This document shows, one piece after another, positions 18,547 through 60,259 of a stretch of 64,000 nucleotides of DNA. Source of the stretch: Laetmonice hystrix (Eukaryota); assembly GCA_965235115.1 (NCBI GenBank), contig OZ249448.1, positions 24,800,001 through 24,864,000 on the forward strand, written 5' to 3'. The first letter of the stretch is position 1, and each line of letters begins with the position of its first letter. A model generated the notes under the pieces. It did not search any database. It was not told where the DNA came from and was given only the letters and a program-made list of their open reading frames with translations. Both the position numbers and the translations under genes were made by a program.

Positions 18547-21288
18547 AGAGCCTGCAGCCAACCCGGCACCAGGTCTGATGGAGCCTGGAGCCAACCTGGC
18601 ACAAGGTCTGTGGGTTGTGAGAGCCTGCAGCCAACCTGGCACAAGATCTGAGGGTTGTGAGAGCCTGCAGCCAACCTGTCACAAGGTCTGAAAGTTGTGA
18701 GAGCCTGCAGCCAACCTGGCACAAGGTCTGAGGGTTGTGAGAGCCTGCAGCCAACCTGGCACAAGGTCTGAGGGTTGTGAGAGCTTGCAGCCAACCTGGC
18801 ACCAGGTCTGTGGGTTGTGAGAGCCTGCAGCCAACCTGGCACAAGGTCTAAGGGTTGTGAGAGCTTGCAGCCAACCTGGCACAAGGTCTAAGGGTTGTGA
18901 GAGCCTGCAGCCAACCTGGCACAAGGTCTAAGGGTTGTGAGAGCTTGCAGCCAACCTGGCACAAGGTCTAAGGGTTGTGAGAGCCTGCAGCCAACCTGGC
19001 ACAAGGTCTAAGGGTTGTGAGAGCCTGCAGCCAACCTGGCACAAGGTCTAAGGGTTGTGAGAGCCTGGAGCCAACCTGTCACAAGGTCTGAGGGTTGTGA
19101 GAGCCTGCAGCCAACCTGGCACAAGGTCTGTGGGTTGTGAGAGCCTGCAGCCAACCTGGCACAAGGTCTGTGGGTTGTGAGAGCCTGCAGCCAACCTGTC
19201 ACAAGGTCTGAGGGTTGTGAGAGCCTGCAGCCAACCTGGCACAAGGTCTGAGGGTTGTGAGAGCCTGCAGCCAACCCGGCACCAGGTCTGATGGAGCCTG
19301 GAGCCAACCTGGCACAAGGTCTGTGGGTTGTGAGAGCCTGCAGCCAACCTGGCACCAGGTCTGTGGGTTGTGAGAGCCTGCAGCCAACCTGGCACAAGGT
19401 CTGAGGGTTGTGAGAGCCTGCAGCCAACCTGGCACAAGGTCTGTGGGTTGTGAGAGCCTGCAGCCAACCTGGCACAAGGTCTGTGGGTTGTGAGAGCCTG
19501 CAGCCAACCTGTCACAAGGTCTGAGGGTTGTGAGAGCCTGGAGCCAACCTGTCACAAGGTCTGAGGGTTGTGAGAGCCTGGAGCCAACCTGGCACAAGGT
19601 CTGAGGGTTGTGAGAGCCTGCAGCCAACCTGTCACAAGGTCTGAGGGTTGTGAGAGCCTGCAGCCAACCTGGCACAAGGTCTGAAAGTTGTGAGAGCCTG
19701 GAGCCAACCTGTCACAAGGTCTGAGGGTTGTGAGAGCCTGCAGCCAACCTGTCACAAGGTCTGAGGGTTGTGAGAGCCTGCAGCCAACCCGGCACCAGGT
19801 CTGATGGAGCCTGGAGCCAACCTGGCACAAGGTCAGCCAACCTGTCACAAGGTCTGAGGGTTATAAGAGCCTGTAGCCAACCTGGCACAAGGTCTGAGGG
19901 TTGTGAGAGCCTGCTGCCAACCTGGCACAAGGTCTGAGGGTTGTGAGAGCCTGCAGCCAACCTGGCACAAGGTCTGATGGAGCCTGGAGCCAACCTGGCA
20001 CAAGGTCTGAGGGTTGTGAGAGCCTGCAGCCAACCCGGCACAAGGTCTGTGGGTTGTGAGAGCCTGGAGCCAACCTGTCACAAGGTCTGAGGGTTGTGAG
20101 AGCCTGGAGCCAACCTGGCACAAGGTCTGAGGGTTGTGAGAGCCTGCAGCCAACCTGGCACCAGGTCTGTGGGTTGTGGGAGCCTGGAGCCAACCTGGCA
20201 CCAGGTCTGATGGAGCCTGGAGCCAACCTGGCACAAGGTCTGAGGGTTGTGAGAGCCTGCAGCCAACCCGGCACAAGGTCTGTGGGTTGTGAGAGCCTGG
20301 AGCCAACCTGTCACAAGGTCTGAGGGTTGTGAGAGCCTGGAGCCAACCTGGCACAAGGTCTGAGGGTTGTGAGAGCCTGGAGCCAACCTGGCACAAGGTC
20401 TGAGGGTTGTGAGAGCCTGCAGCCAACCTGGCACCAGGTCTGTGGGTTGTGAGAGCCTGCAGCCAACCTGGCACAAGGTCTGAAAGTTGTGAGAGCCTGC
20501 AGCCAACCTGGCACAAGGTCTGAAAGTTGTGAGAGCCTGCAGCCAACCTGTCACAAGGTCTGTGGGTTGTGAGAGCCTGCAGCCAACCCGGCACAAGGTC
20601 TGTGGGTTGTGAGAGCCTGCAGCCAACCTGTCACAAGGTCTGAGGGTTGTGAGAGCCTGCAGCCAACCTGGCACAAGGTCTGTGGGTTGTGAGAGCCTGC
20701 AGCCAACCTGGCACAAGGTCTGAGGGTTGTGAGAGCCTGGAGCCAACCTGTCACAAGGTCTGAGGGTTGTGAGAGCCTGCAGCCAACCTGGCACAAGGTC
20801 TGAGGGTTGTGAGAGCCTGCAGCCAACCTGGCACAAGGTCTGAGGGCTGTGAGAGCCTGCAGCCAACCTGGCACAAGGTCTGTGGGTTGTGAGAGCCTGC
20901 AGCCAACCTGGCACAAGGTCTGTGGGTTGTGAGAGCCTGCAGCCAACCTGGCACAAGGTCTGTGGGTTGTGAGAGCCTGCAGCCAACCTGGCACCAGGTC
21001 TGTGGGTTGTGAGAGCCTGGAGCCAACCTGGCACCAGGTCTGTGGGTTGTGAGAGCCTGGAGCCAACCTGGCACCAGGTCTGTGGGTTGTGAGAGCCTGG
21101 AGCCAGCCTGGCACACGGTCTGTGGGTTGTGAGAGCCTGGATCCAACCTGTCACAAGGTTTGTGGGTTGTGAGAGCCTGGAGCCAACCTGTCACAAGGTC
21201 TGATGGAGCCTGGGGCCAACCTGGCACAAGGTCTGATGGAGCCTACAGCCAACCTGTCACAAGGTCAGCCAACCTGGCACAAGGTCTG
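18547..21288. repeat. 40-bp minisatellite, ~70 units with interspersed variants
   Basis: GAGCCTGCAGCCAACCTGGCACAAGGTCTGAGGGTTGTGA; explains all ORFs 18402-21227. Confidence 0.98.
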
Positions 21289-34200: not shown

Positions 34201-34496
34201 TGCGTGATACAGACCGTAGCCTTTCGTAGGGACCAATGACACTCGAAAGCGCTCTCTTCGATTAGCCTTTACCAGGCTCATTATACGTAGTCAATATAGA
34301 CATGGGGACCAGGCTATTACTGCCTTCGCCAGTAATAATTACCCCTCCCCCCTCACACACAGTCCGAGAGCAGAACGACTGATGCTAACAGATATACTGG
34401 TATACAAAAATCAGAGTTTGGAGCTCGTAGAGGACCGAATGTCTAAACGGACATGTGGAGGACGGAAAGGTTAATCCTAGTCGTTTTGTTGGACGT

Positions 34497-34604
34497 ATTG
34501 AACACAGGACTGAGGGGCCCGTTCAAACTGCTTCAATAAACAGAGAACCTATTGAACACAGGACTAAGGGGCCCGTTTAAACTGCTTCAATGAACAGACA
34601 ACCC
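34497..34604. repeat. 54-bp tandem, 2 copies
   Basis: ATTGAACACAGGACT(G/A)AGGGGCCCGTT(C/T)AAACTGCTTCAAT. Confidence 0.85.
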
Positions 34605-35188
34605 ATTACGATGAACAGTTTATGATATAAGCTCGAGACGTCCCTTGTGTAGGGCAATACGTGACGTCAGATTCTGTGTTGCTATTGGAAACACGTGCCG
34701 AGAACGTGCTTCGTTACCAAAGTATGGCCAGGATGAACATGAAAGCGATACCGAATGACAAGATACGAGAGATCCTGGCATGTCTCAATCAGCGGCTGAG
34801 TCAACAATCATCTCACAGTACCCGCCAATCTGTATCGGTGACTTTTTATCCCAGGTTTTACAGTACAGCGAGCGATAATATAGCACTTCAACAATACCGG
34901 TCCGGCAAACTGTTGATAAAATTGAGTTTTAATTTCTATAGCTGGAAACAAATTCAGCTTTGTCCGCAGGTCCCCCAAGGCAAGCATTAGCCGACCTGGA
35001 CAAATTGAAACCGCCCATTGATCCAATAAACCCTTTCAACATTTTGTTACAATGTGAGCGATTTCATTATTACCACGATACATTAATTACTGCGTCCATA
35101 CTTAAGAAGTAAATTAAGAATGGGTGGCACGCTATTAATTGGGATAGATTTCCATTACTAGCATTAGCCCATGTTTTCAGACACTTAC

Positions 35189-35369: not shown

Positions 35370-36425
35370 CTGGATGTTAGTAAATACAAAAAGGGCCAGC
35401 GGGGCCGTCTGGAGGATTTATCATTCGGTCTTGATGGCATCTTACAAACACAGTAACACTCATTGTGTTAGAGTCAGCCAAAGGAAAAGTAGCACCTGTT
35501 GGTTCTCCATTTTCTTCATTAAAGTTCAGAATATGTTCTCAATCTGACATTTTGTTAAATGACATGCTTTCCGCTTCAATGTTCTCTCTGTGAATGAATT
35601 CTCTACAGATGGTCGCAAAATGTTTATATTCAGTTGAATTACAGCTGTCATCCATGCTGCCTCGCTGAAACTTGCGCGGCAAAATAAACGTGATTTCTAC
35701 CATCTCTGAATAAATACAGCAGATGTGGGCCTCCCATACATTTAATATTCGTACGTAGCCAACATAGTAACAAACCACGTAAAAATGTCCCCGCCCGACC
35801 TAAGAAATATCCCCGACCTGGAATTATTTCATGTTTTTTTCATGTTTTAGTTTTCAATTTCTTGCTTGAAATTTTTTTTTGAAAATTTCTATTGTCTTTT
35901 TGTACCTTCCTAACTTGCCTTCTGACCACGAATACCATAGATGTCTTCTTCCACCAGCCACGCCGCCACTCCAGTCATAGAATAAAAACTATTTTAAAAA
36001 CCCTCTCGCCCGACATGGAAATATTGGAAGAGGTGGACGATAGAAAAGTAATTCTTTTTAGACAGAATACACTGACCCCTTAATCTTTCTGAAAGTAGGG
36101 GGAGTGATCCTGACCTCTAAAGTCGTTTCCTTTTAGATATCGTCTCCGAACAATCTCAAATAACTCACAAATGGCTTTCAATATTTCAGAGCGGCAGTAT
36201 TTTAGATTTATTGTCTTTCTTGAACGTTTTAACATTTAAAAAGGGAGGTGACTGTAGAGTAATTACATGGTAATTAACAACAGCAATGTTCTTATCCTGA
36301 GTTTCCTGGAGAGTCTACATGACTTGGAAATAAGCTAAATGATTGATAGTCCAAACTTTCGGGCCTAGATCTGATATTAACCTCTATCAATCATTTATCG
36401 GCAATAAGAATAGAAGGAAATGATG

Positions 36426-36728
36426 AATCCGAGCTCGGCGCCAAAGAGCCGGGATCATTTATGGAGGAGAAACGAGGGGTTTGCGTAGGTATATTAGTAT
36501 AGGTACTCGCACATATGTATCTAGGACCCATGTCGTGTGCTCAGTATGTATTGTCGAGGTAATGTAAACAATAGCTGTACTCCCGTTAACCACCATCTTG
36601 GTTCTCGCCTCTCGCGCGGTCTGGGTCGGAAATGACGAAGGCGACTTGGGAGACGATCCGGAGGGTATAAATACAACCGAGCAGAAGAGTCGAGTTCTCT
36701 ACCTTTGGAAGCTTCGTGGCAATCAGAC
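36426..36728 (+). repeat. Repeat A1 (left terminus of split-direct-repeat element)
   Basis: Identical to 41810-42112; contains TATAAA at 36666-36671. Confidence 0.95.
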
Positions 36729-38267
36729 TGATTCGTTCCCCACACATCGGGTGAGTTCGTTCTATGGTTGGGACTTCGTTTCAAGTATACGGTGGAACGT
36801 GGTTTGTCGACTGTTTCTTATATTTGCCTTGTGTTTGACACCTATATGCAGGTGTTATGTCTAAAACAGTTCCAGTTATTCGTCTTTCGAGGCTGTATTA
36901 TAGACCAGTACCCAGTATTTATGTGTGTCTGAAATAGTCACATGCAGTGTTGCAGGACGCACAGTCGCTTCCACGTGGTCGACCTGACCTTTGTGGTTCG
37001 GGCTCGGCTAGCCTACTTGAAGCTCCTGGTAGACAATTTGTGTTACGAGTTTGTAGTTATTTTAGTTCACCACACATTGAGGGCGACTGACGACGTCGGC
37101 GGTGCTATGTTGTGTAATTTTGTGTACGTATTTGTCCCAGAATGGTAGTGGGGGTACGATAATTTCAGTTTTGTTTTACCGTGGTTTACTCCGTGTTGAG
37201 TAGGGTAATAGCGTTCGGTACCAAGGTTGAGCTTATACAACGGTTTGTCCTGCCACGTGGTGTATCATGGTGGGGGTAGGCTCGTAAAAGTGTGAGGTAG
37301 GCCTACATTGTCGTGGAGTTGGTGTTTTTCGCTAGTCCTCACTATGTGGGGTTGAAGGTTGGTAGAAGTTATGTTGTGTTACTTGACCAGTGAACTGCTG
37401 TGACACGCCGGGTGTTCTTTAATTTTTCTAGTCCCGTCTTATATAGGCGTTTACTGCTGCTCCTAATTGCAACAGTTGGTATGGTTTTCGAAGTGCCCTC
37501 CCTAGATTATGTTAAATACAGTGTTTATCGCTTGGCGGCAATGCTTCTTGCCGTTTGCTTGGGGTGCTTTTTGGATGTGGGTATGCTGCGCTGGTATTCG
37601 AGCGGTACGTGGTGCTGTTATTCGGGTAGAAGTATTTATTTACGGTGGACAGATTAATCTGGATGTATTGGCACCAGCTTTAACCTGATAAGCTTTGGAG
37701 ATGGTTTGATGAATGTAATTTTACCTGACTTGTTGGACTCTAATTTAGTGTCGCTGATAATTTTCTTTCTCTTGTAGCCAACGAGTGGCTTATCCCTGAT
37801 ATTATATCTGGATTTGGACAGGTGCCCACTGTTCAGTGTGGTTCATTGATGCAGTCGCATAGTAGGGGGGATTTCGTCAATGTTATTTTGTATGTAGTAG
37901 TTTGGTATTCACTCCTTGTGGTTGCTTTGTTTTGAGTCTATCCATTTGTAAGTATTTGATTTTGTATTTTTGAGTTTAGTTGTCCCCTGAACCTTACTAG
38001 GCAGACTACCTGTCCCTCTGTTTCAGGATTTACATCATTTAATCTAATTGCCCCTGATTAATAGGCGTGTAGATTTAGCTACCACCTCATCTGAAAGGTT
38101 TTGTCGTTTAAGTATTTTGCCAATAGTTTGTAGACCCACCCCACCCCACCCTTCCTCGTGTTAGTGAGGTGTGTGTGTGTGTTGGAGGAGGGGGGTGTGG
38201 GGGGGGGGGGTGTTGTGTTTACGAATAACGGGGCTCTGCTGATGTGGGCTTAATGTGGTGTAACATA

Positions 38268-38905
38268 CGGTGTGTGGTCCCTTCGGTTCCGCTTTCCCTT
38301 GTGGTTGTGTTAACTTGGTTGGGGGATGGGGCCGTGTTCCGTGGGGTTGACGGTGTGTGGTCCCTTCGGTTCCGCCTTCCCTTGTGGTGGTGTTAACTTG
38401 GTTGGGGGATGGGGCCGTGTTCCGTGGGGTTGACGGTGTGTGGTCCCTTCGGTTCCGCCTTCCCTTGTGGTTGTGTTAACTTGGTTGGGGGATGGGGCCG
38501 TGTTCCGTGGGGTTGACGGTGTGTGGTCCCTTCGGTTCCGCCTTCCCTTGTGGTTGTGTTAACTTGGTTGGGGGATGGGGCCGTGTTCCGTGGGGTTGAC
38601 GGTGTGTGGTCCCTTCGGTTCCGCCTTCCCTTGTGGTTGTGTTAACTTGGTTGGGGGATGGGGCCGTGTTCCGTGGGGTTGACGGTGTGTGGTCCCTTCG
38701 GTTCCGCCTTCCCTTGTGGTTGTGTTAACTTGGTTGGGGGATGGGGCCGTGTTCCGTGGGGTTGACGGTGTGTGGTCCCTTCGGTTCCGCCTTCCCTTGT
38801 GGTTGTGTTAACTTGGTTGGGGGGTGGTGTCGTGTTCCGTGGGGTTCTGTCCTCCCTTGATAGGATTACCTTGGGGTCGACGGTGTGGTCCCTTCGGTTC
38901 CGTCA
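38268..38905. repeat. 83-bp G/T-rich minisatellite inside the element, 7 copies plus a degenerate 8th
   Basis: Unit CGGTGTGTGGTCCCTTCGGTTCCGCC...GGGGTTGA at 38268, 38351, ... 38766. Confidence 0.95.
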
Positions 38906-39726
38906 TCCCCGTTATATTACAAGTTGTTTTACGGCAGATGTGCCTGGTTTCCGCAGGCTGCCACATCCTTTGGTGCATTGTACTTCTAGTCCCCATGATG
39001 GGTGATCGATGGGTACCTATGTATATGGATGCGAGGGGATGTCCCCTCCGCTCTGCCTTTTTCGAGGATTAGGGCTGAATCTTTATTTTCTTGTTTTAAA
39101 GTTGTTCAAGAAGTCATTTTAGGTCGGTAGGTTGTGTTAGTAAGTCAGGTCACTTCTACTGTATTTTAGTGTGTACTATGTGTTTACGCTTTTTGGATCT
39201 GCCTCGCCTTCGGGCTATGGTGGGACCGTCTGCACTTAAATATCTTGTTCATTAACTTTGTAAATTATCTGTCAAATTTTCAATGTACTATTTTGTTAAT
39301 TTGGTAATATTAGGTATCTTCGATAAAATTATTAACAATGTCAGTCAGGGTTGTCACCTTAGTTAAATGTTGCCTATTTAGTTTTTACTTTGTGTTGAGG
39401 GCTATAATTATATTATATATTTATCGTAATTTCGTCTAACTATATAATTTCAATGTTAACTATAAAGGTAATAAGTATTATCGTATTATTGGGTGGTTAA
39501 TTTGATTTGTCATAATGTATAAGCGGAATTTATGCAATTTTTTGATATTGAGTTGATTGTATTTGTCATAGGGCAGTAACTATTATTCCTCTGCCAGATG
39601 TTTCTTCGGTCTTTTGTTATTTTCCATTTTAGGTGGACGACAGGCTGAGCATATGGCTTTGGTGCATGGGTCGTGGGACGTATTCTATATTTACACATTC
39701 ATTTGTACTGATAAGAGCTGATGGAA

Positions 39727-40780
39727 GGCTGAGTATGTGTCTTTGGTAGACTTTGGAGGTTTACTGATGTGGGTAAGGTCAATTCCCCGTGTTTTGAACC
39801 TGTGATGTTGTTCGAAGGCTGAGTGTTGATTTATATTATTCAAGGTTCGGTATGGTTCAGAGGTTGTTTTGGTTTAGAATTTCCTTTAGTTACCATCTCT
39901 ATGGAATGTCTTTCTTGTAGGTATGTGGAATACTTGCCGCGTAGAGGCTTAACCCATGTTTGTGGTTGGTCTCGGATATCAAGGCCTTTAACTTGTTCAT
40001 GTGATCCTGTGGTTATTATGTGTATGTGATGTGGTTATGTGGTTATTATGTGTATAGGCTTAACCCATGTTTGTGGTTGGTCTCGGATATCAAGGCCTTT
40101 AACTTGTTCATATGATCCTGTGGTTATTATGTGTATGTGATGTGGTTATGTGGTTATTATGTGTATGTGTATATACGGAGATCAGTTATCTTTTTAAGTT
40201 TTGGGAACCCTCCCGGGCCCAAGAGATCCGATGTTGGATGTATGTTGGACTCCCAAGCGTGAAGCGTTTCCACGGTTTTTGACTACGACTTTCATGGTTC
40301 CTGATACGTTTGGCTGAGTATGTGTCTTCGGTTGACTTTGGAGATTTGCTGATGTGGGTAGGTCAATTCCCCGTGTTTTGAACCTGTGATGTTGTTCGAA
40401 GGGCTGAGTGTCGAATTATATTATTCAGGGTTCGGTATGGTTCAGAGGTTGTTTTGGTTTAGTGGTTCCTTTAGTTACCATCTCTATGGAATGTATTTCT
40501 TGTAGGTATGTGGAATACTTGCCGCGTATAGGCTTAACCCATGTTTGTGGTTGGTCTCGGATATCAAGGCCTTTAACTTGTTCATATGATCCTGTGGTTA
40601 TTATGTGATGTGGTTATGTGGTTATTATGTGTATGTGTATATACGGAGATCAGTTATCTTTTTAAGTTTTGGGGAACCTCCCGGGCCCAAGAGATCCGAT
40701 GTTGGATGTATGTTGGACTCCCAAGCGTGAACCGATTCCACGGTTTTTGACTACGACTTTCATGGTTCCTGCTACGTTTG
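39727..40780. repeat. Internal direct duplication within the element (39727-40311 vs 40312-40780)
   Basis: Both copies begin GGCTGAGTATGTGTCTT and end CATGGTTCCTG(A/C)TACGTTTG; the first has an extra ~100-bp internal tandem duplication; scattered substitutions. Confidence 0.9.
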
Positions 40781-41540
40781 CGCGTCCTTCACCTCCAGTA
40801 TTTGTTATTCCAGTAGTCTTCCCTTTTTACGTTACCTTATGCTTACGTTACGATCCGTGTATCATTAAATGTTGGGCTCTGTAGCTGTCTGGTGGGTACT
40901 AGTTTGGTACCGTACAAAGTGGTAGGTAAGTGCTCGGGGGCGGCTAGATAGACGAAGCGTTGAAGGAGGTGGATGAAGTAAGCTTTAATTGGAATGTTGT
41001 CCGGTGCAGTGACGAGGCAGCTTTGTCGCCCGGTTCAGTGACGAGGAAGTTTGGATTGTTGCCCGGTTCGGTTATTTATTATTAAATATTTATAGTATGG
41101 TCCCAGGTGGTAGAATGGGATACCGTCACGTTTTTCCACCAGTTTCTCAGTCTATCACAATTTCCCAGGATAAGTAAGTATGGTGTAATGGAGTTTAATG
41201 GTGGGTGCTTCCTGTTTGGTCAAGCAGCTGGGTGTTATAACTTGTTAACCTGACGTTATGATGTTGACTCCAAGGATCTAAGGTCTTCTTCCGTACGTCT
41301 TAGGATTCAAAGCCTTGATATGCTTGTTGCAGGTACACCAGATGCCCCTAATCGGACTGGATGATGATGGGTTCCGCTATCCGTTCGTTTAGGCCAGGAG
41401 ATGATCTGTGCCTAATTTCCAAGTTGTGTCTGACGGTGATGCGTAGATTTGGCTCCTGGTGCGGTGTCAGCGGGTCGCGTTAGGAGTCTTTTCTCCTGCC
41501 TTCTTTGGTGGCTCCAGCTTCATCTTCGATTCCGCTTAGT

Positions 41541-41812
41541 GGCATTGTCTCCACCTAATAAGGCATTACTATACATATATCTATGTATTTTGGACTATGT
41601 ATTTCCATATAATGTATTATCGGTTATGTATTATATTACTTAGTATTGTTATGTTGTTACATATATCAGTTACACCTTATATAGATTTATCATTTACCAT
41701 ATTATAATGTTTGTAGAGTCCCCCATTGCATGGGGTGATCAACGGGTTACTATGTGAATAAAATGTAACCTACAGCAAAGCATTCCCGTTCTCCGAGTTT
41801 GACTGCATAAAT
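41541..41812 (+). repeat. Repeat B1
   Basis: Identical to 42275-42546; AT-rich; CCCCAT-TGC-ATGGGG hairpin 41721-41735; AATAAA 41757-41762. Confidence 0.95.
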
Positions 41813-42112
41813 CCGAGCTCGGCGCCAAAGAGCCGGGATCATTTATGGAGGAGAAACGAGGGGTTTGCGTAGGTATATTAGTATAGGTACTCGCACATAT
41901 GTATCTAGGACCCATGTCGTGTGCTCAGTATGTATTGTCGAGGTAATGTAAACAATAGCTGTACTCCCGTTAACCACCATCTTGGTTCTCGCCTCTCGCG
42001 CGGTCTGGGTCGGAAATGACGAAGGCGACTTGGGAGACGATCCGGAGGGTATAAATACAACCGAGCAGAAGAGTCGAGTTCTCTACCTTTGGAAGCTTCG
42101 TGGCAATCAGAC
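41810..42112 (+). repeat. Repeat A2
   Basis: Second copy of A, overlapping B1 by AAT; TATAAA 42050-42055. Confidence 0.95.
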
Positions 42113-42274
42113 GGCCCACCTCCGCCCCGACTCCTCCATGTTTCAACGCCTTTGCCTGGTTTAAATTATGTTTTTATGTAGACCTACTGGGTTTGGCTTG
42201 GGGTCAGCATGGCTGCCCGAGTTCTTTTCTCAGTTTGGTTGGATAGGGATGTATTTGGGTTCCTGGATGTTGTG

Positions 42275-42546
42275 GGCATTGTCTCCACCTAATAAGGCAT
42301 TACTATACATATATCTATGTATTTTGGACTATGTATTTCCATATAATGTATTATCGGTTATGTATTATATTACTTAGTATTGTTATGTTGTTACATATAT
42401 CAGTTACACCTTATATAGATTTATCATTTACCATATTATAATGTTTGTAGAGTCCCCCATTGCATGGGGTGATCAACGGGTTACTATGTGAATAAAATGT
42501 AACCTACAGCAAAGCATTCCCGTTCTCCGAGTTTGACTGCATAAAT
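42275..42546 (+). repeat. Repeat B2 (right terminus)
   Basis: Second copy of B; AATAAA 42491-42496; ends GACTGCATAAAT. Confidence 0.95.
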
Positions 42547-43191
42547 ACTGTCCTATAAAACAACGATTGCTTGAGAACGTGGGCCCCAGATGTCTGAGAG
42601 GGAGAAAACGCAAGCCACCTCGCTTGCTTTACTCGGCAAACCCGCCACTCAGATCCTGACTGTGCCATGATACATCACCCGGATTATCGGACGTTAATCT
42701 CTTTGTCTGGGACCGACATCTTCCACGTCTGTGCATACGTTGACCTACTTACAGCATAAAACATTGAGGGCGACATCTCAAGGTCACCCCTGCCGCCAGA
42801 TCGACAAATAACCAGACTGTACCTTCCGGGCCACCGTAGTTCCCACGTCACATACAACAGTGGCTGACCATAGTGGCTTTGTTTCTCGTTATATTCGGTT
42901 ATATTGTTAAAAGTGAATCATAACATTGAATTTCTCATAACAAATGTGTATTGTCGTCGGTCCGTTTGGACTGGAAGGTGTCCTATTCTAATCTATTCTA
43001 TTCCTATTCCTATTCTAATTTCCTGACCAGGAAACAACGTTGACCGGTCCAAGCAATAGCGGTTGTATCGCGTGAGCAGTGGAGTGATTTCACGGGTGTA
43101 ACACTACCTGACCTGACTCCTCCCTCCTATAGGTAAAACGTGGCTAAACTCTTGTAAAACGTTCTGCCACACCCACAACAATCACGTCCAC

Positions 43192-44042: not shown

Positions 44043-44666
44043 GTAATTTAGTAAATTAATACAGCCTCATTGACATTTTTACTAATTGCTCCAATAAAAC
44101 AATGAACTTTTTCTGTTCATACAACTTGTCAGTATGCCCCCCAGCGCCCCCAAGTGTTGGCGACCCGCCCGGGGTCCTGCAGTTCTGGTATTCCCCCACC
44201 CTCTGACCCCATAGCCCCAGAAAGGTCAGCAGTAATATAGCAGTGCTATTCTGGGTGTCCTATATAACTGGATGACCTCACAGACTCCTGACATGGAAAT
44301 AACGACAGATTCCATAACAACAACTGGGGAGTACAGCGGTCCCACCAACCTCCGTACAGTCGCTCAGGACATCAGTTCATATCTCAACATGTAGCTTCTT
44401 CATTCTCCCCCAACTTACCGACCAAAACCATTTCAGCCATCTCTGAAAGTAATATTTTATATAGATTAACATCTGCCTTTTCTCTGGCATTAGCCGATGC
44501 AATATCTTATCTTAGCACCTGCCTCTGAGACTGACGGCCGTACGTGTATTCTCTGATAACAGACCATGAACCTGGATTCACTCTCTGCCACCACCGAGTC
44601 GGGAACTCAATAAACATTCCGGCATCATTAGTTCATGCTGCAACAGGACAAACTGAACTAATCACA

Positions 44667-45940
44667 TGGACGTCACTAAGACTGCTACAATAGGACAGCT
44701 TGAATCAATCAAATGGACGTCACTAAGACTGCTACAATAGGACAGCTTGAATCAATCAAATTGACGTCACTGAGACTGCTGCAACCGGACAGCTTCAATC
44801 AAATGGACGTCACTGAGACTGCTACAATAGGACAGCTTGAATCAATCAAATGGACGTCACTAAGACTGCTACAATAGGACAGCTTCAATCAATCAAATGG
44901 ACGTCACTGAGACTGCTGCAACAGGACAGCTTCAATCAATCAAATGGACGTCACTGAGACTGCTGCAACAGGACAGCTTGAATCAATCAAATGGACGTCA
45001 CTGAGACTGCTGCAACAGGACAGCTTGAATCAATCAAATGGACGTCACTGAGACTGCTGCAACCGGACAGCTTGAATCAATCAAATGGACGTCACTAAGA
45101 CTGCTGCAACAGGACAGCTTGAATCAATCAAATGGACGTCACTGAGACTGCTGCAACAGGACAGCTTAAATCAATCAAATGGACGTCACTAAGACTGCTA
45201 CAATAGGACAGCTTGAATCAATCAAATGGACGTCACTAAGACTGCTGCAACAGGACAGCTTGAATCAATCAAATGGACGTCACTAAGACTGCTACAATAG
45301 GACAGCTTGAATCAATCAAATGGACGTCACTAAGACTGCTACAATAGGACAGCTTGAATCAATCAAATGGACGTCACTGAGACTGCTGCGACAGGACAGC
45401 TTCAATCAATCAAATGGACGTCACTGAGACTGCTGCAACAGGACAGCTTGAATCAATCAAATGGACGTCACTAAGACTGCTGCAACCGGACACCTTGAAT
45501 CAATCAAATGGACGTCACTGAGACTGCTACAACCGGACAGCTTGAATCAATCAAATGGACGTCACTGAGACTGCTGCAACAGGACAGCTTGAATGAATCA
45601 AATGGACGTCACTAAGACTGCTGCAACCGGACACCTTGAATCAATCAAATGGACGTCACTGAGACTGCTGCGACAGGACAGCTTCAATCAATCAAATGGA
45701 CGTCACTGAGACTGCTACAACCGGACAGCTTGAATCAATCAAATGGACGTCACTGAGACTGCTGCAACAGGACAGCTTAAATCAATCAAATGGACGTCAC
45801 TAAGACTGCTGCAACCGGACAGCTTGAATCAATCAAATGGACGTCACTGAGACTGCTGCAACAGGACAGCTTGAATCAATCAAATGGACGTCACTGAGAC
45901 TGCTGCAACAGGACAGCTTGAATCAATCAAATGGACGTCA
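44667..45940. repeat. 47-bp minisatellite, ~27 copies
   Basis: ATGGACGTCACTGAGACTGCTGCAACAGGACAGCTTGAATCAATCAA. Confidence 0.98.
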
Positions 45941-55342: not shown

Positions 55343-56851
55343 GTTTATACCGACAGGGACACTCCTCTAAAGTTGTGTTTATACCGCCCGGGACACTCCT
55401 CTAACTGTGTTTATACCGCCCGGGACACTCCTCTAACTGTGTTTATACCGCCCGGGACACTCCTCTAACTGTGTTTATACCGCCCGGGACACTCCTCTAA
55501 CTGTGTTTATACCGCCCGGGACACTCCTCTAACTGTGTTTATACCGCCCGGGACACTCCTCTAACTGTGTTTATACCGACAGGGACACTCCTCTAACTGT
55601 GTTTATACCGACCGGGACACTCCTCTAACTGTGTTTATACCGCCCGGGACACTCCTCTAACTGTGTTTATACCGCCCGGGACACTCCTCTAACTGTGTTT
55701 ATACCGCCCGGGACACTCCTCTAACTGTGTTTATACCGCCCGGGACACTCCTCTAACTGTGTGTATACCGACCGGGACACTCCTCTAACTGTGTTTATAC
55801 CGCCCGGGACACTCCTCTAACTGTGTTTATACCGACCGGGACACTCCTCTAACTGTGTTTATACCGCCCGGGACACTCCTCTAACTGTGTTTATACCGCC
55901 CGGGACACTCCTCTAACTGTGTTTATACCGCCCGGGACACTCCTCTAACTGTGTTTATACCGCCCGGGACACTCCTCTAACTGTGTTTATACCGCCCGGG
56001 ACACTCCTCTAACTGTGTTTATACCGCCCGGGACACTCCTCTAACTGTGTTTATACCGCCCGGGACACTCCTCTAACTGTGTTTATACCGCCCGGGACAC
56101 TCCTCTAACTGTGTTTATACCGCCCGGGACACTCCTCTAACTGTGTTTATACCGCCCGGGACACTCCTCTAACTGTGTTTATACCGCCCGGGACACTCCT
56201 CTAACTGTGTTTATACCGCCCGGGACACTCCTCTAACTGTGTGTATACCACCCGGGACACTCCTCTAACTGTGTTTATACCGCCCGGGACACTCCTCTAA
56301 CTGTGTTTATACCGCCCGGGACACTCCTCTAACTGTGTTTATACCGCCCGGGACACTCCTCTAACTGTGTTTATACCGCCCGGGACACTCCTCTAACTGT
56401 GTGTATACCGCCCGGGACACTCCTCTAACTGTGTTTATACCGCCCGGGACACTCCTCTAACTAAACTGTGTTTATACCGCCCGGGACACTCCTCTAACTG
56501 TGTTTATACCGCCCGGGACACTCCTCTAACTGTGTTTATACCGCCCGGGACACTCCTCTAACTGTGTTTATACCGCCCGGGACACTCCTCTAACTGTGTT
56601 TATACCGCCCGGGACACTCCTCTAACTGTGTTTATACCGCCCGGGACACTCCTCTAACTGTGTTTATACCGCCCGGGACACTCCTCTAACTGTGTTTATA
56701 CCGCCCGGGACACTCCTCTAACTGTGTTTATACCGCCCGGGACACTCCTCTAACTGTGTTTATACCGCCCGGGACACTCCTCTAACTGTGTTTATACCGC
56801 CCGGGACACTCCTCTAACTGTGTTTATACCGCCCGGGACACTCCTCTAACT
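55343..56851. repeat. 32-bp near-perfect minisatellite, ~47 copies
   Basis: ACTGTGTTTATACCGCCCGGGACACTCCTCTA. Confidence 0.98.
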
Positions 56852-57393
56852 ATGTTGAAACCTACCTTGGATTATGATGATGAAAGACAGAGGTGAAACG
56901 GACACCTGACGTCTGCACACGGAGGCAGGCGTGGCATGTTGTTGCCATGGCAATTATAGAATACATATTCCATTCCCATTTATTACCAGACAACACCACC
57001 TTTCACAACTAAAGATGGACACCCATCAGTTGAGTCACGCTAACAGTATCCAATTCACCACGACCCGGCCAACACATGTCATATCTATATGCATCACGTA
57101 GTTTTGCTTTGGTTTGTTCACTGTGGCATCCCTATTGTGGCAGCTTTACTAGTTCATAAAACACCAAATTAAAGAACCTTTCGTTGCACAAACTAGATTA
57201 GTTCTCATGAGAAGAACCATAAAAAGTTAATTACCTTTGCTTGGATAAGATTCACCTCAGCTGGCTGTCGGTGGCGGCAGTGGAAACCTTTGATGTCACA
57301 TATTATCCTCACGTGACCATGACGTTCTTTCACAGACATGCGCAGTGAGCGGACGCTGATACTCTGTGACGTCACAGTTGACGTTTTGAACAG

Positions 57394-58999: not shown

Positions 59000-59170
59000 T
59001 CATGAATTTCCAGCCCTAAATCTGAATTCATGAATTCCTCGCCCTGAATCTGATTTAATGAATTCCGAACTTTGAATCTGAATTCATGAATTCCGGACCC
59101 TGAATCTGATTTAATGAATTCCGAACTTTGAATCTGAATTCATGAATTCCGGACACTGAACCTGAATTAA
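59000..59170. repeat. ~56-bp tandem rich in GAATTC, ~3 copies
   Basis: TGAATCTGATTTAATGAATTCCGAACTTTGAATCTGAATTCATGAATTCC. Confidence 0.85.
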
Positions 59171-60259
59171 CCATGAACATTTCACACATCAAACGCTTTG
59201 GTGATAAAGACCTTGACCTTGGCCTCACCGTCATCGTTAACCTGCCGTGGACATGAGGGTTTGTATCAATATTGTCTTTAGATGTAGCGGTTTGTTGCAG
59301 AAATGGGCGGGTTACGACAAACAATGCGCCCTGTAAACAATGCCCAGCGTTCTTGGGTGTTCGCCACCTGGCGGGCCTGAGGAGAACCTCTCAGAACTTG
59401 TTTGTTGTCGTCCCGCATGACTGACAACCTGGAGAGTCGACTGCCCGGCCATCTGGGCCTCCTGGATGACCTCTGACCCCGAGCCACAGTCGGCCCGGGC
59501 CCGTGTGTGTGCGGGAGATGGCCGGTAGGGGGCAGGGCGATCAGTTAGAGCCGTTGTAACCAGATTATGGGACGCTGTGTGCCGATCGATGGAATGACGG
59601 ATCCCAGACCCAACACTGAGCGGAAACGGATCCTGATTGGTTGAGCGGTCTCCATGGAGACGTATTACTGGCGTCGTGCCGTCACCGCCTCTAGTCGTCC
59701 GTCACAGGAAACGCTGTCCCAATAGTTATATCCTCCACAAACATTTCATTTTACACACTCTCATCTGGTATTTGTGACGGAATTTAAATCATGCATCATT
59801 TCTCCCACCCATGACACCATTTGTATACCTGTTTTAGAACTGATATTCCTGTGGATTTTTGTAATAGAGAACAAAGACCAGTAAACCAACCGAAAGTCAC
59901 GTGAGGTCATTCCTATCTCCAGGATCCATCCCCACTAATTATATGACCGGTTTCAGACCCGCTACTCTCACACAGAGACGCCAGTGGTAATGAAATAATT
60001 AGACGCCAGGCTCCGCAGGTCATTAGTATCCAGTGGTAATTATTCCGTAATTGGTGATATATCACTTTCAATATTTGTCTGTCCATGAGGGACGCTGGCC
60101 GCTGAAGTCGACGCAGGTGGTGGTGGTTGGCACCAGTGGCGCCCCCACTTGACCCCATGACCCCAAGCACCTGTCGCTCGCTACCTTAGGGCACCTACCC
60201 CAGTCGCTCTCACCCCTTCAACATAGGCCTTATACGTCCATCCTATGCTAGACTCGATA

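Follow-up and report, generated by a model that had tools for sequence, protein, structure and literature searches.

We identified a 6121-bp element in a 64,000-nt stretch of the Laetmonice hystrix genome (assembly GCA_965235115.1, contig OZ249448.1, positions 24,800,001-24,864,000 of the forward strand; the whole of this stretch is hereafter called the window). The element is protein-less, multi-copy and built on split direct repeats, and it probably works as a non-autonomous tyrosine-recombinase retrotransposon resembling TOC1. It occupies positions 36426..42546 on the + strand, with the trinucleotide AAT counted at both ends, and was delimited by comparison of its repeats, by a contig representing the empty allele, and by a step in depth at the right end. 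From left to right it consists of repeat A1, a long interior, repeat B1 joined directly to repeat A2, a short spacer, and repeat B2.

Repeats A1 (36426..36728, + strand) and A2 (41810..42112, +) were identical at 303/303 bases, and B1 (41541..41812, +) and B2 (42275..42546, +) at 272/272, giving 575 identical bases among the 575 paired. The identity between A1 and A2 started at an AAT without extending leftward, and that between B1 and B2 ended at an AAT without extending rightward; B1 and A2 overlapped by exactly these three bases. A first-pass annotation of the window had reported an AAT core at all three joints, and this was borne out: tgatg-AAT-ccgagc at the left end (36426..36428, +), gcata-AAT-ccgagc at the internal joint (41810..41812, +), and gcata-AAT-actgtc at the right end (42544..42546, +), where the AAT comprises the first bases common to the empty allele. 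The internal joint would be a stored copy of the junction of a circular intermediate. Given the repeats, the three AATs amount to one fact, a 3-base microhomology between the stored joint and the target.

The interior (36729..41540, +; 4.8 kb) was non-coding and G/T-rich on the + strand, with no open reading frame (ORF) longer than 104 amino acids and no Pfam or Rfam match. Its + strand composition was T 37%, G 28%, A 18% and C 17%, while the flanks were balanced. It contained an 83-bp tandem unit repeated seven times at 98% matches (38267..38846) and a region of internal duplications (39727..40780; 330 bp at 94%, 261 bp at 96%, and a 111-bp unit present twice). The 162-bp spacer (42113..42274, +) between A2 and B2 had no homology to the interior and was itself multi-copy.

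The empty allele and the size of the family were observed in contigs from four sequencing runs (X1-X4), compared with the window over 41770-43190. All four came from one sample of one study, possibly the window's own source, so they are not independent support; the counts of loose ends, indels and contig pieces given here are of those listed. A 978-nt contig from X1 (record 6) fitted 42544-43025 and was preceded by 496 letters unlike those of the window, and flank contigs from X2 and X3 started exactly at 42544, which we read as a branch in the assembly graph. An allele without B2 exists, and the part of the element that it shares with the filled allele is AAT and nothing beyond it. An empty site with a single AAT had been predicted: the AAT did stand directly before the right flank in X1-X3, while the 496 letters would presumably be the left flank. 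The element is thus polymorphic, since this one sample carries both its filled and its empty allele, and it is also dispersed and multi-copy. Single B contigs reached approximately 145, 146 and 197 haplotype-equivalents, compared with 1.3-1.6 for the single-copy right flank (42547..43025), which is carried by the empty-allele contig; these equivalents are rough, as the tool warns that contig depth is not a copy number. The standard for one haplotype was taken from 42996-43133, where X1-X3 showed two haplotypes, one equal to the window and the other with 4 substitutions and 4 gap letters. Joints of A1 to the interior and of B to the interior were both present in contigs. X4 (58 million letters) covered A, the spacer and B at a depth of approximately 300 and left the right flank uncovered. 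A 1402-nt X4 contig left B into 1173 other letters at a depth of 327, and perhaps represents a short copy in an abundant transcript or other high-depth sequence.

Variation among copies linked the members of each repeat pair. At six sites (41940, 41944, 42016, 42309, 42374 and 42475) a letter other than that of the window made up 76-100% of the depth in 17 of the 18 site-by-run values, the remaining value being 45% at 42374 in X2. The minority letters at these sites were carried by both copies of each repeat in the window. B contigs of two allele types each started exactly at 42275, where the contexts of B1 and B2 diverge (records 12 and 19). The repeats therefore seem to evolve together within a copy, as expected if the outer ends are rebuilt from the internal joint, and these repeat pairs sharing rare letters favour a TOC1-like non-autonomous retroelement. 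Alleles of A and B at about half depth were present at 41874, 42069 and 42300. A second, common type of spacer was also found, with loose ends at 42145 and 42167 showing a longer insert and a 5-base loss at 42268.

From the layout we infer an RNA intermediate, template switching, a joined intermediate, and a recombinase supplied by a helper element. A + strand RNA would be transcribed from late A1 into B2. A TATAAA box (36666..36671, +) lies 62 nt upstream of where A1 ends, with its copy at 42050, and may act as the promoter; an AATAAA (42491..42496, +) lies 50 nt upstream of where B2 ends, with its copy at 41757, and may act as the poly(A) signal. The chance of each motif from composition was approximately 0.025 and 0.055, respectively, in windows picked after the motifs had been seen, and their positions suit a + strand transcript. 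A helper's borrowed reverse transcriptase would copy this RNA, template switches at the B1/A2 joint would rebuild both outer ends, and the helper's tyrosine recombinase would carry out the crossover inside AA(T), so that each end keeps a single core. Solo A-spacer-B units would arise where A1 recombined with A2.

A trinucleotide crossover at the junction without duplication is the published model for the DIRS order (PMC3266345). The crossover mechanism given in the first-pass annotation is already in print, and the element is a new example of it. Among DIRS1-like elements NTT termini were described in 23 of 28, with ATT the commonest and AAT at the junction, including an element from Capitella, and some had mismatched ends, one with an AA junction (PMC3266345). 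A core common to the junction, to both ends and to the empty target, with no separate duplication, characterizes the DIRS order and was found here, the left side of the empty allele being presumably the 496 letters.

The closest likeness by description was to TOC1 of Chlamydomonas reinhardtii, which has split repeats and an internal 76-bp tandem array. Both elements are several kb long, without proteins, with split direct repeats, an internal tandem array and no ordinary target duplication; they differ in that the host here is of animal type, and the likeness is one of description rather than of compared sequence. TOC1 is classed as a non-autonomous retrotransposon of the DIRS order (PMC9940879). 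The order A1-interior-B1A2B2 matched that of Ngaro, PAT-like and VIPER elements (PMC4157794, PMC8969392), for which repeats that measure 150-400 bp and reach up to 100% identity, a length of approximately 6 kb and short A-B derivatives have been described, as in our element (PMC9210276, PMC8547959, PMC6681497). Besides TOC1, protein-less precedents are SIRE and solo AB repeats (PMC9210276, PMC8547959, PMC6681497). However, none of the coding features of these groups (Gag, reverse transcriptase/RNase H, tyrosine recombinase, or the PAT methyltransferase) was found in the element, so it is not an autonomous member. The superfamily cannot be named, Ngaro and PAT being inseparable without genes.

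Features of DIRS1-like elements were also present. These elements share a 3-bp junction core, most commonly ATT/AAT, and a self-complementary junction (PMC3266345, PMC7192593). Their ends are offset by an extension and have 'divergent' inverted terminal repeat (ITR) parts that are 50-85% complementary (PMC3266345, PMC7192593), and the ends of our element are similarly offset. In contrast to DIRS1-like elements, the long repeats here are direct, the inverted part is approximately 45 nt and imperfect, and there is neither a conserved ITR nor an inverted internal complementary region; no inverted repeat of at least 40 nt was found in the element, which argues against the long ITR or internal complementary region of that group.

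The joined ends are predicted to form an off-centre hairpin across the B1/A2 joint (41768..41874, +), with 29 Watson-Crick pairs spanning the joint. The predicted fold pairs the final ~45 nt of B with nucleotides 32-65 of A. This subterminal arm of A starts 31 nt in from the left end (36457..36490, + strand, in A1) and recurs in A2 (41841-41874); it is an imperfect complement of the final ~45 nt of B. A 7-bp stem (41806-41812 paired to 41841-41847) would carry the AAT at the end that faces the loop. Folded as single-stranded DNA, the joined junction (41765-41876) gave -25.2 kcal/mol and a z score of -5.3, with none of 200 shuffles as strong, and the same junction folded as RNA gave a z score of -4.2. 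Of 310 windows across 34.4-43.2 kb (12 shuffles each), it ranked first in both energy and z score, and its inner 54 nt ranked 5th of 6066. The filled element ends alone showed no fold above shuffles (z -0.3 each), and the predicted hairpin would form only with both ends joined. The listed variants were rarer inside the fold (2 in 107 nt vs 33 in 465; Fisher p 0.043), a comparison biased by contig ends and incomplete indels, with termini conserved under any model. Alignment of B with reversed A under four scoring schemes was not clearly above shuffles (82/300, 201/500, 402/500 and 15/500), and the complementarity is therefore short and imperfect. The idea that A and B form a long, degenerate inverted repeat was considered and rejected, as the alignment was not significant and a 301-nt fold was weaker (z -2.2). 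A weak hairpin was also predicted across the interior/B1 joint (41484-41595; z -2.4, 4/200 shuffles) and was absent at the spacer/B2 joint.

The modelled junction hairpin would most likely serve in recognition or in the joining of the ends, in the manner of the self-complementary junction of DIRS1-type elements. It also invites comparison with the integron attC site. If the cut fell behind the first base of the core, A|TT here and G|TT in attC, it would be compatible with all of the ends seen. The attC site is an imperfect hairpin in which a 7-bp core pairs with its inverse (PMC8876359), features shared with the predicted fold; it differs in that our element is eukaryotic, no integrase was seen and there is no GTTRRRY, and we treat the comparison as an analogy only. 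No prior statement of an attC or hairpin reading of DIRS-order junctions was found in a literature search that covered mostly open-access papers. The junction hairpin thus appears new, although earlier accounts of Ngaro and kangaroo may already describe junction details.

Several observations weigh against a tyrosine-recombinase retroelement. At least three shared bases arose at 5.6-7.6% of flank positions under simulated homology-free insertion. The expectation that AAT would be the core of other copies was weakened: all five of the listed pieces leaving B into other sequence stopped at 42545, with the T absent (X1 record 5, X2 record 13, X3 record 21, and X4 records 30 and 32; probably 2-3 loci, all diverged and from the one sample). 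The consensus after this stop began with A, and AA was kept in all five. The core of the family may be AA rather than AAT, and strict homology is probably needed for AA alone (TT on the opposite strand); the third base would be free, or preferred without being required. A B:spacer ratio of 2:1 was dropped as proof of family-wide linkage once the second spacer type was counted, with approximately 60 plus 50-61 haplotype-equivalents of spacer compared with ~145-197 of B; short or solo units are probably common in the family. The identity of the repeats could instead come from gene conversion or assembly collapse. With all six frames read through stops, no protein family reached the Pfam cut-off in the element, where the interior had 65-94 stops per frame and a longest ORF of at most 104 amino acids; a weak match to RVT_N (E 0.031) fell below the cut-off, and there was no trace of tyrosine recombinase, reverse transcriptase, RNase H or Gag in six frames. 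No helper recombinase or reverse transcriptase was found in the window either, among all 90 other ORFs of at least 75 amino acids outside tandem arrays. In addition, the minus-strand ends agree with several of the features by which Helitron2 elements are recognized.

Other searches were also negative. Rfam gave no match in the element, the single match (E 1.1) being below the cut-off and located in the flank, and no ribozyme was matched in this search. A 20-nt pattern from the start of A found eight loci in metagenomes, all chance-like with no match longer than 26 nt, and none in viral contigs. Degenerate recombinase-motif patterns aimed at other split-repeat elements found one unrelated phage locus, and a further search of this type had no hits.

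The element ends had no terminal inverted repeat, no TG...CA and no CTRR end, the ends inside the core read CC...TA, and no symmetric lox-like arms flanked the AAT. The absence of target-site duplication had been claimed, and no duplication longer than AAT was found; however, AAT on both sides is formally a 3-bp duplication, and the single argument for assigning one AAT to the element is that the internal joint also has AAT. The first-pass annotation had further favoured a tyrosine recombinase over a DDE integrase or target-primed reverse transcription. The joints do argue against these two, but they do not single out a tyrosine recombinase, because a head-to-tail pair of Helitron2-type elements on the minus strand fits the same three joints.

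This pair is the main rival, although we consider it improbable. It would comprise non-autonomous Helitron2/Helentron elements on the minus strand, one unit of 0.7 kb with another of 5.4 kb behind it, placed just upstream of T by HUH rolling-circle insertion, and the AAT would combine a host A|TT with the Ts that terminate the elements themselves. Helitron2 is defined by an asymmetric inverted repeat of 8-15 bp, whose distance from the terminus is 0-2 bp on the 5' side and 20-30 bp on the 3' side (PMC3627910). The minus strand has a 5' T and a terminal 10-mer whose 9/10 inverted partner stops 29 nt short of the 3' end and directly precedes a 7-bp hairpin, an arrangement reached in 13 of 20,000 shuffles. 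Insertion before T or TT without duplication is also matched by the minus-strand ends, and central tandem repeats are shared with HINE and DINE-1 elements. The number of terminal Ts varies in HINEs (PMC4067079). The model also allows the T to be missing at 42546 in the other listed copies. However, the perfect inverted match is 7 bp, reached by 64 of 500 shuffles, compared with 12-15 bp in HINEs (PMC4067079), and the 5' and 3' terminal hairpins, although drawable, had z scores of -0.32 and -0.18 (80 and 85 of 200 shuffles). Nor would such a pair predict that A1=A2 and B1=B2 share rare letters, the spacer itself being old multi-copy sequence, or that TATA and poly(A) signals lie on the + strand, and, provided that the left flank is what the 496 letters represent, the other allele lacks both units at once. 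A canonical Helitron was rejected separately: TC follows a host A on the + strand, but CTRR occurs at neither end.

An assembly artefact, in which a misjoin or collapse mediated by repeats made A1=A2 and B1=B2 and paired unrelated flanks, is unlikely. The window alleles at 41944 and 42475 had no residual depth in X1 contigs, and the contigs were compared only at the right side, both of which leave room for an artefact; contigs do, however, drop rare variants. The kilobase minisatellites of the window were resolved unit by unit, the right-end branch recurred in three runs, and the A1-interior and B-interior joints were both found in contigs.

We regard as very unlikely a Crypton-like origin, in which the same family moved as DNA. 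A tyrosine recombinase would excise circles and insert them at a short core, and a short circle that entered next to the terminus of a long copy would have produced the tandem. Any crossover at AA(T) would fit the joints, and Cryptons carry no more than short terminal direct repeats and have non-autonomous derivatives. Crypton repeats are nevertheless 4-6 bp, with none found in animal Cryptons, and the 300-bp concerted repeat pairs and the transcript signals would be left without a reason.

Two DNA transposons of the DDE type, inserted in tandem and duplicating AAT as a 3-bp target, or a long terminal repeat (LTR) or Penelope-type arrangement, have as little probability: a filled AAT...AAT with an empty AAT is the pattern of a 3-bp duplication, and Harbinger elements targeting ANT have been described, but the element has no terminal inverted repeats, TG...CA, A tail or ribozyme match, the AAT is also internal rather than absent from the element as a duplication would be, and the other listed right ends lack the T. 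A Penelope pseudo-LTR was also rejected, because the sequence after A2 does not resume the interior.

Elsewhere, the window was rich in minisatellites, with 78 Tandem Repeats Finder rows that included a 40-bp unit repeated 67 times (18581-21236), a 47-bp unit repeated 28 times (44636-45940) and a 32-bp unit repeated 47 times (55343-56856). A 54-bp unit present in two copies at 34490-34625 folded above shuffles (z -2.9, 2/200). The lone family match among the 90 ORFs was to Pfam DUF1908 (59058-59390, minus strand; E 8e-4, below the cut-off), and may mark a host-gene exon.

The element provides a clean new example of its kind: it has split repeats and no genes, is young and polymorphic, and occurs as filled and empty alleles within one sample. 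It also carries a warning for annotation, in that tandem Helitron2 elements read on the other strand can mimic a gene-less split-repeat layout. A more speculative extension, which we think doubtful but worth stating, is that split-repeat retroelements integrate as folded single strands. The rebuilt B-A junction would adopt an attC-like, off-centre hairpin whose cut site lies on the loop side of a 7-bp stem, and a tyrosine recombinase borrowed from a helper would swap a single strand with a TT anywhere in the host. A core of 6-8 bp is typical of the sites used by tyrosine recombinases. If true, integration as a folded single strand would explain why 2-3 homologous bases are enough for the DIRS order, and it is consistent with the single-stranded cDNA that has been reported for DIRS-1. 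If true, the element would also be an intermediate of PAT-type and DIRS1-type ends, combining perfect split direct repeats with short, imperfect, offset inverted ends; an intermediate between split direct and inverted ends had not been observed, according to PMC4157794. The specificity of DIRS-order recombinases is described in PMC7192593 as not investigated experimentally, and the junction hairpin could offer a concrete candidate substrate for asking what these recombinases recognise and whether they act on single strands.

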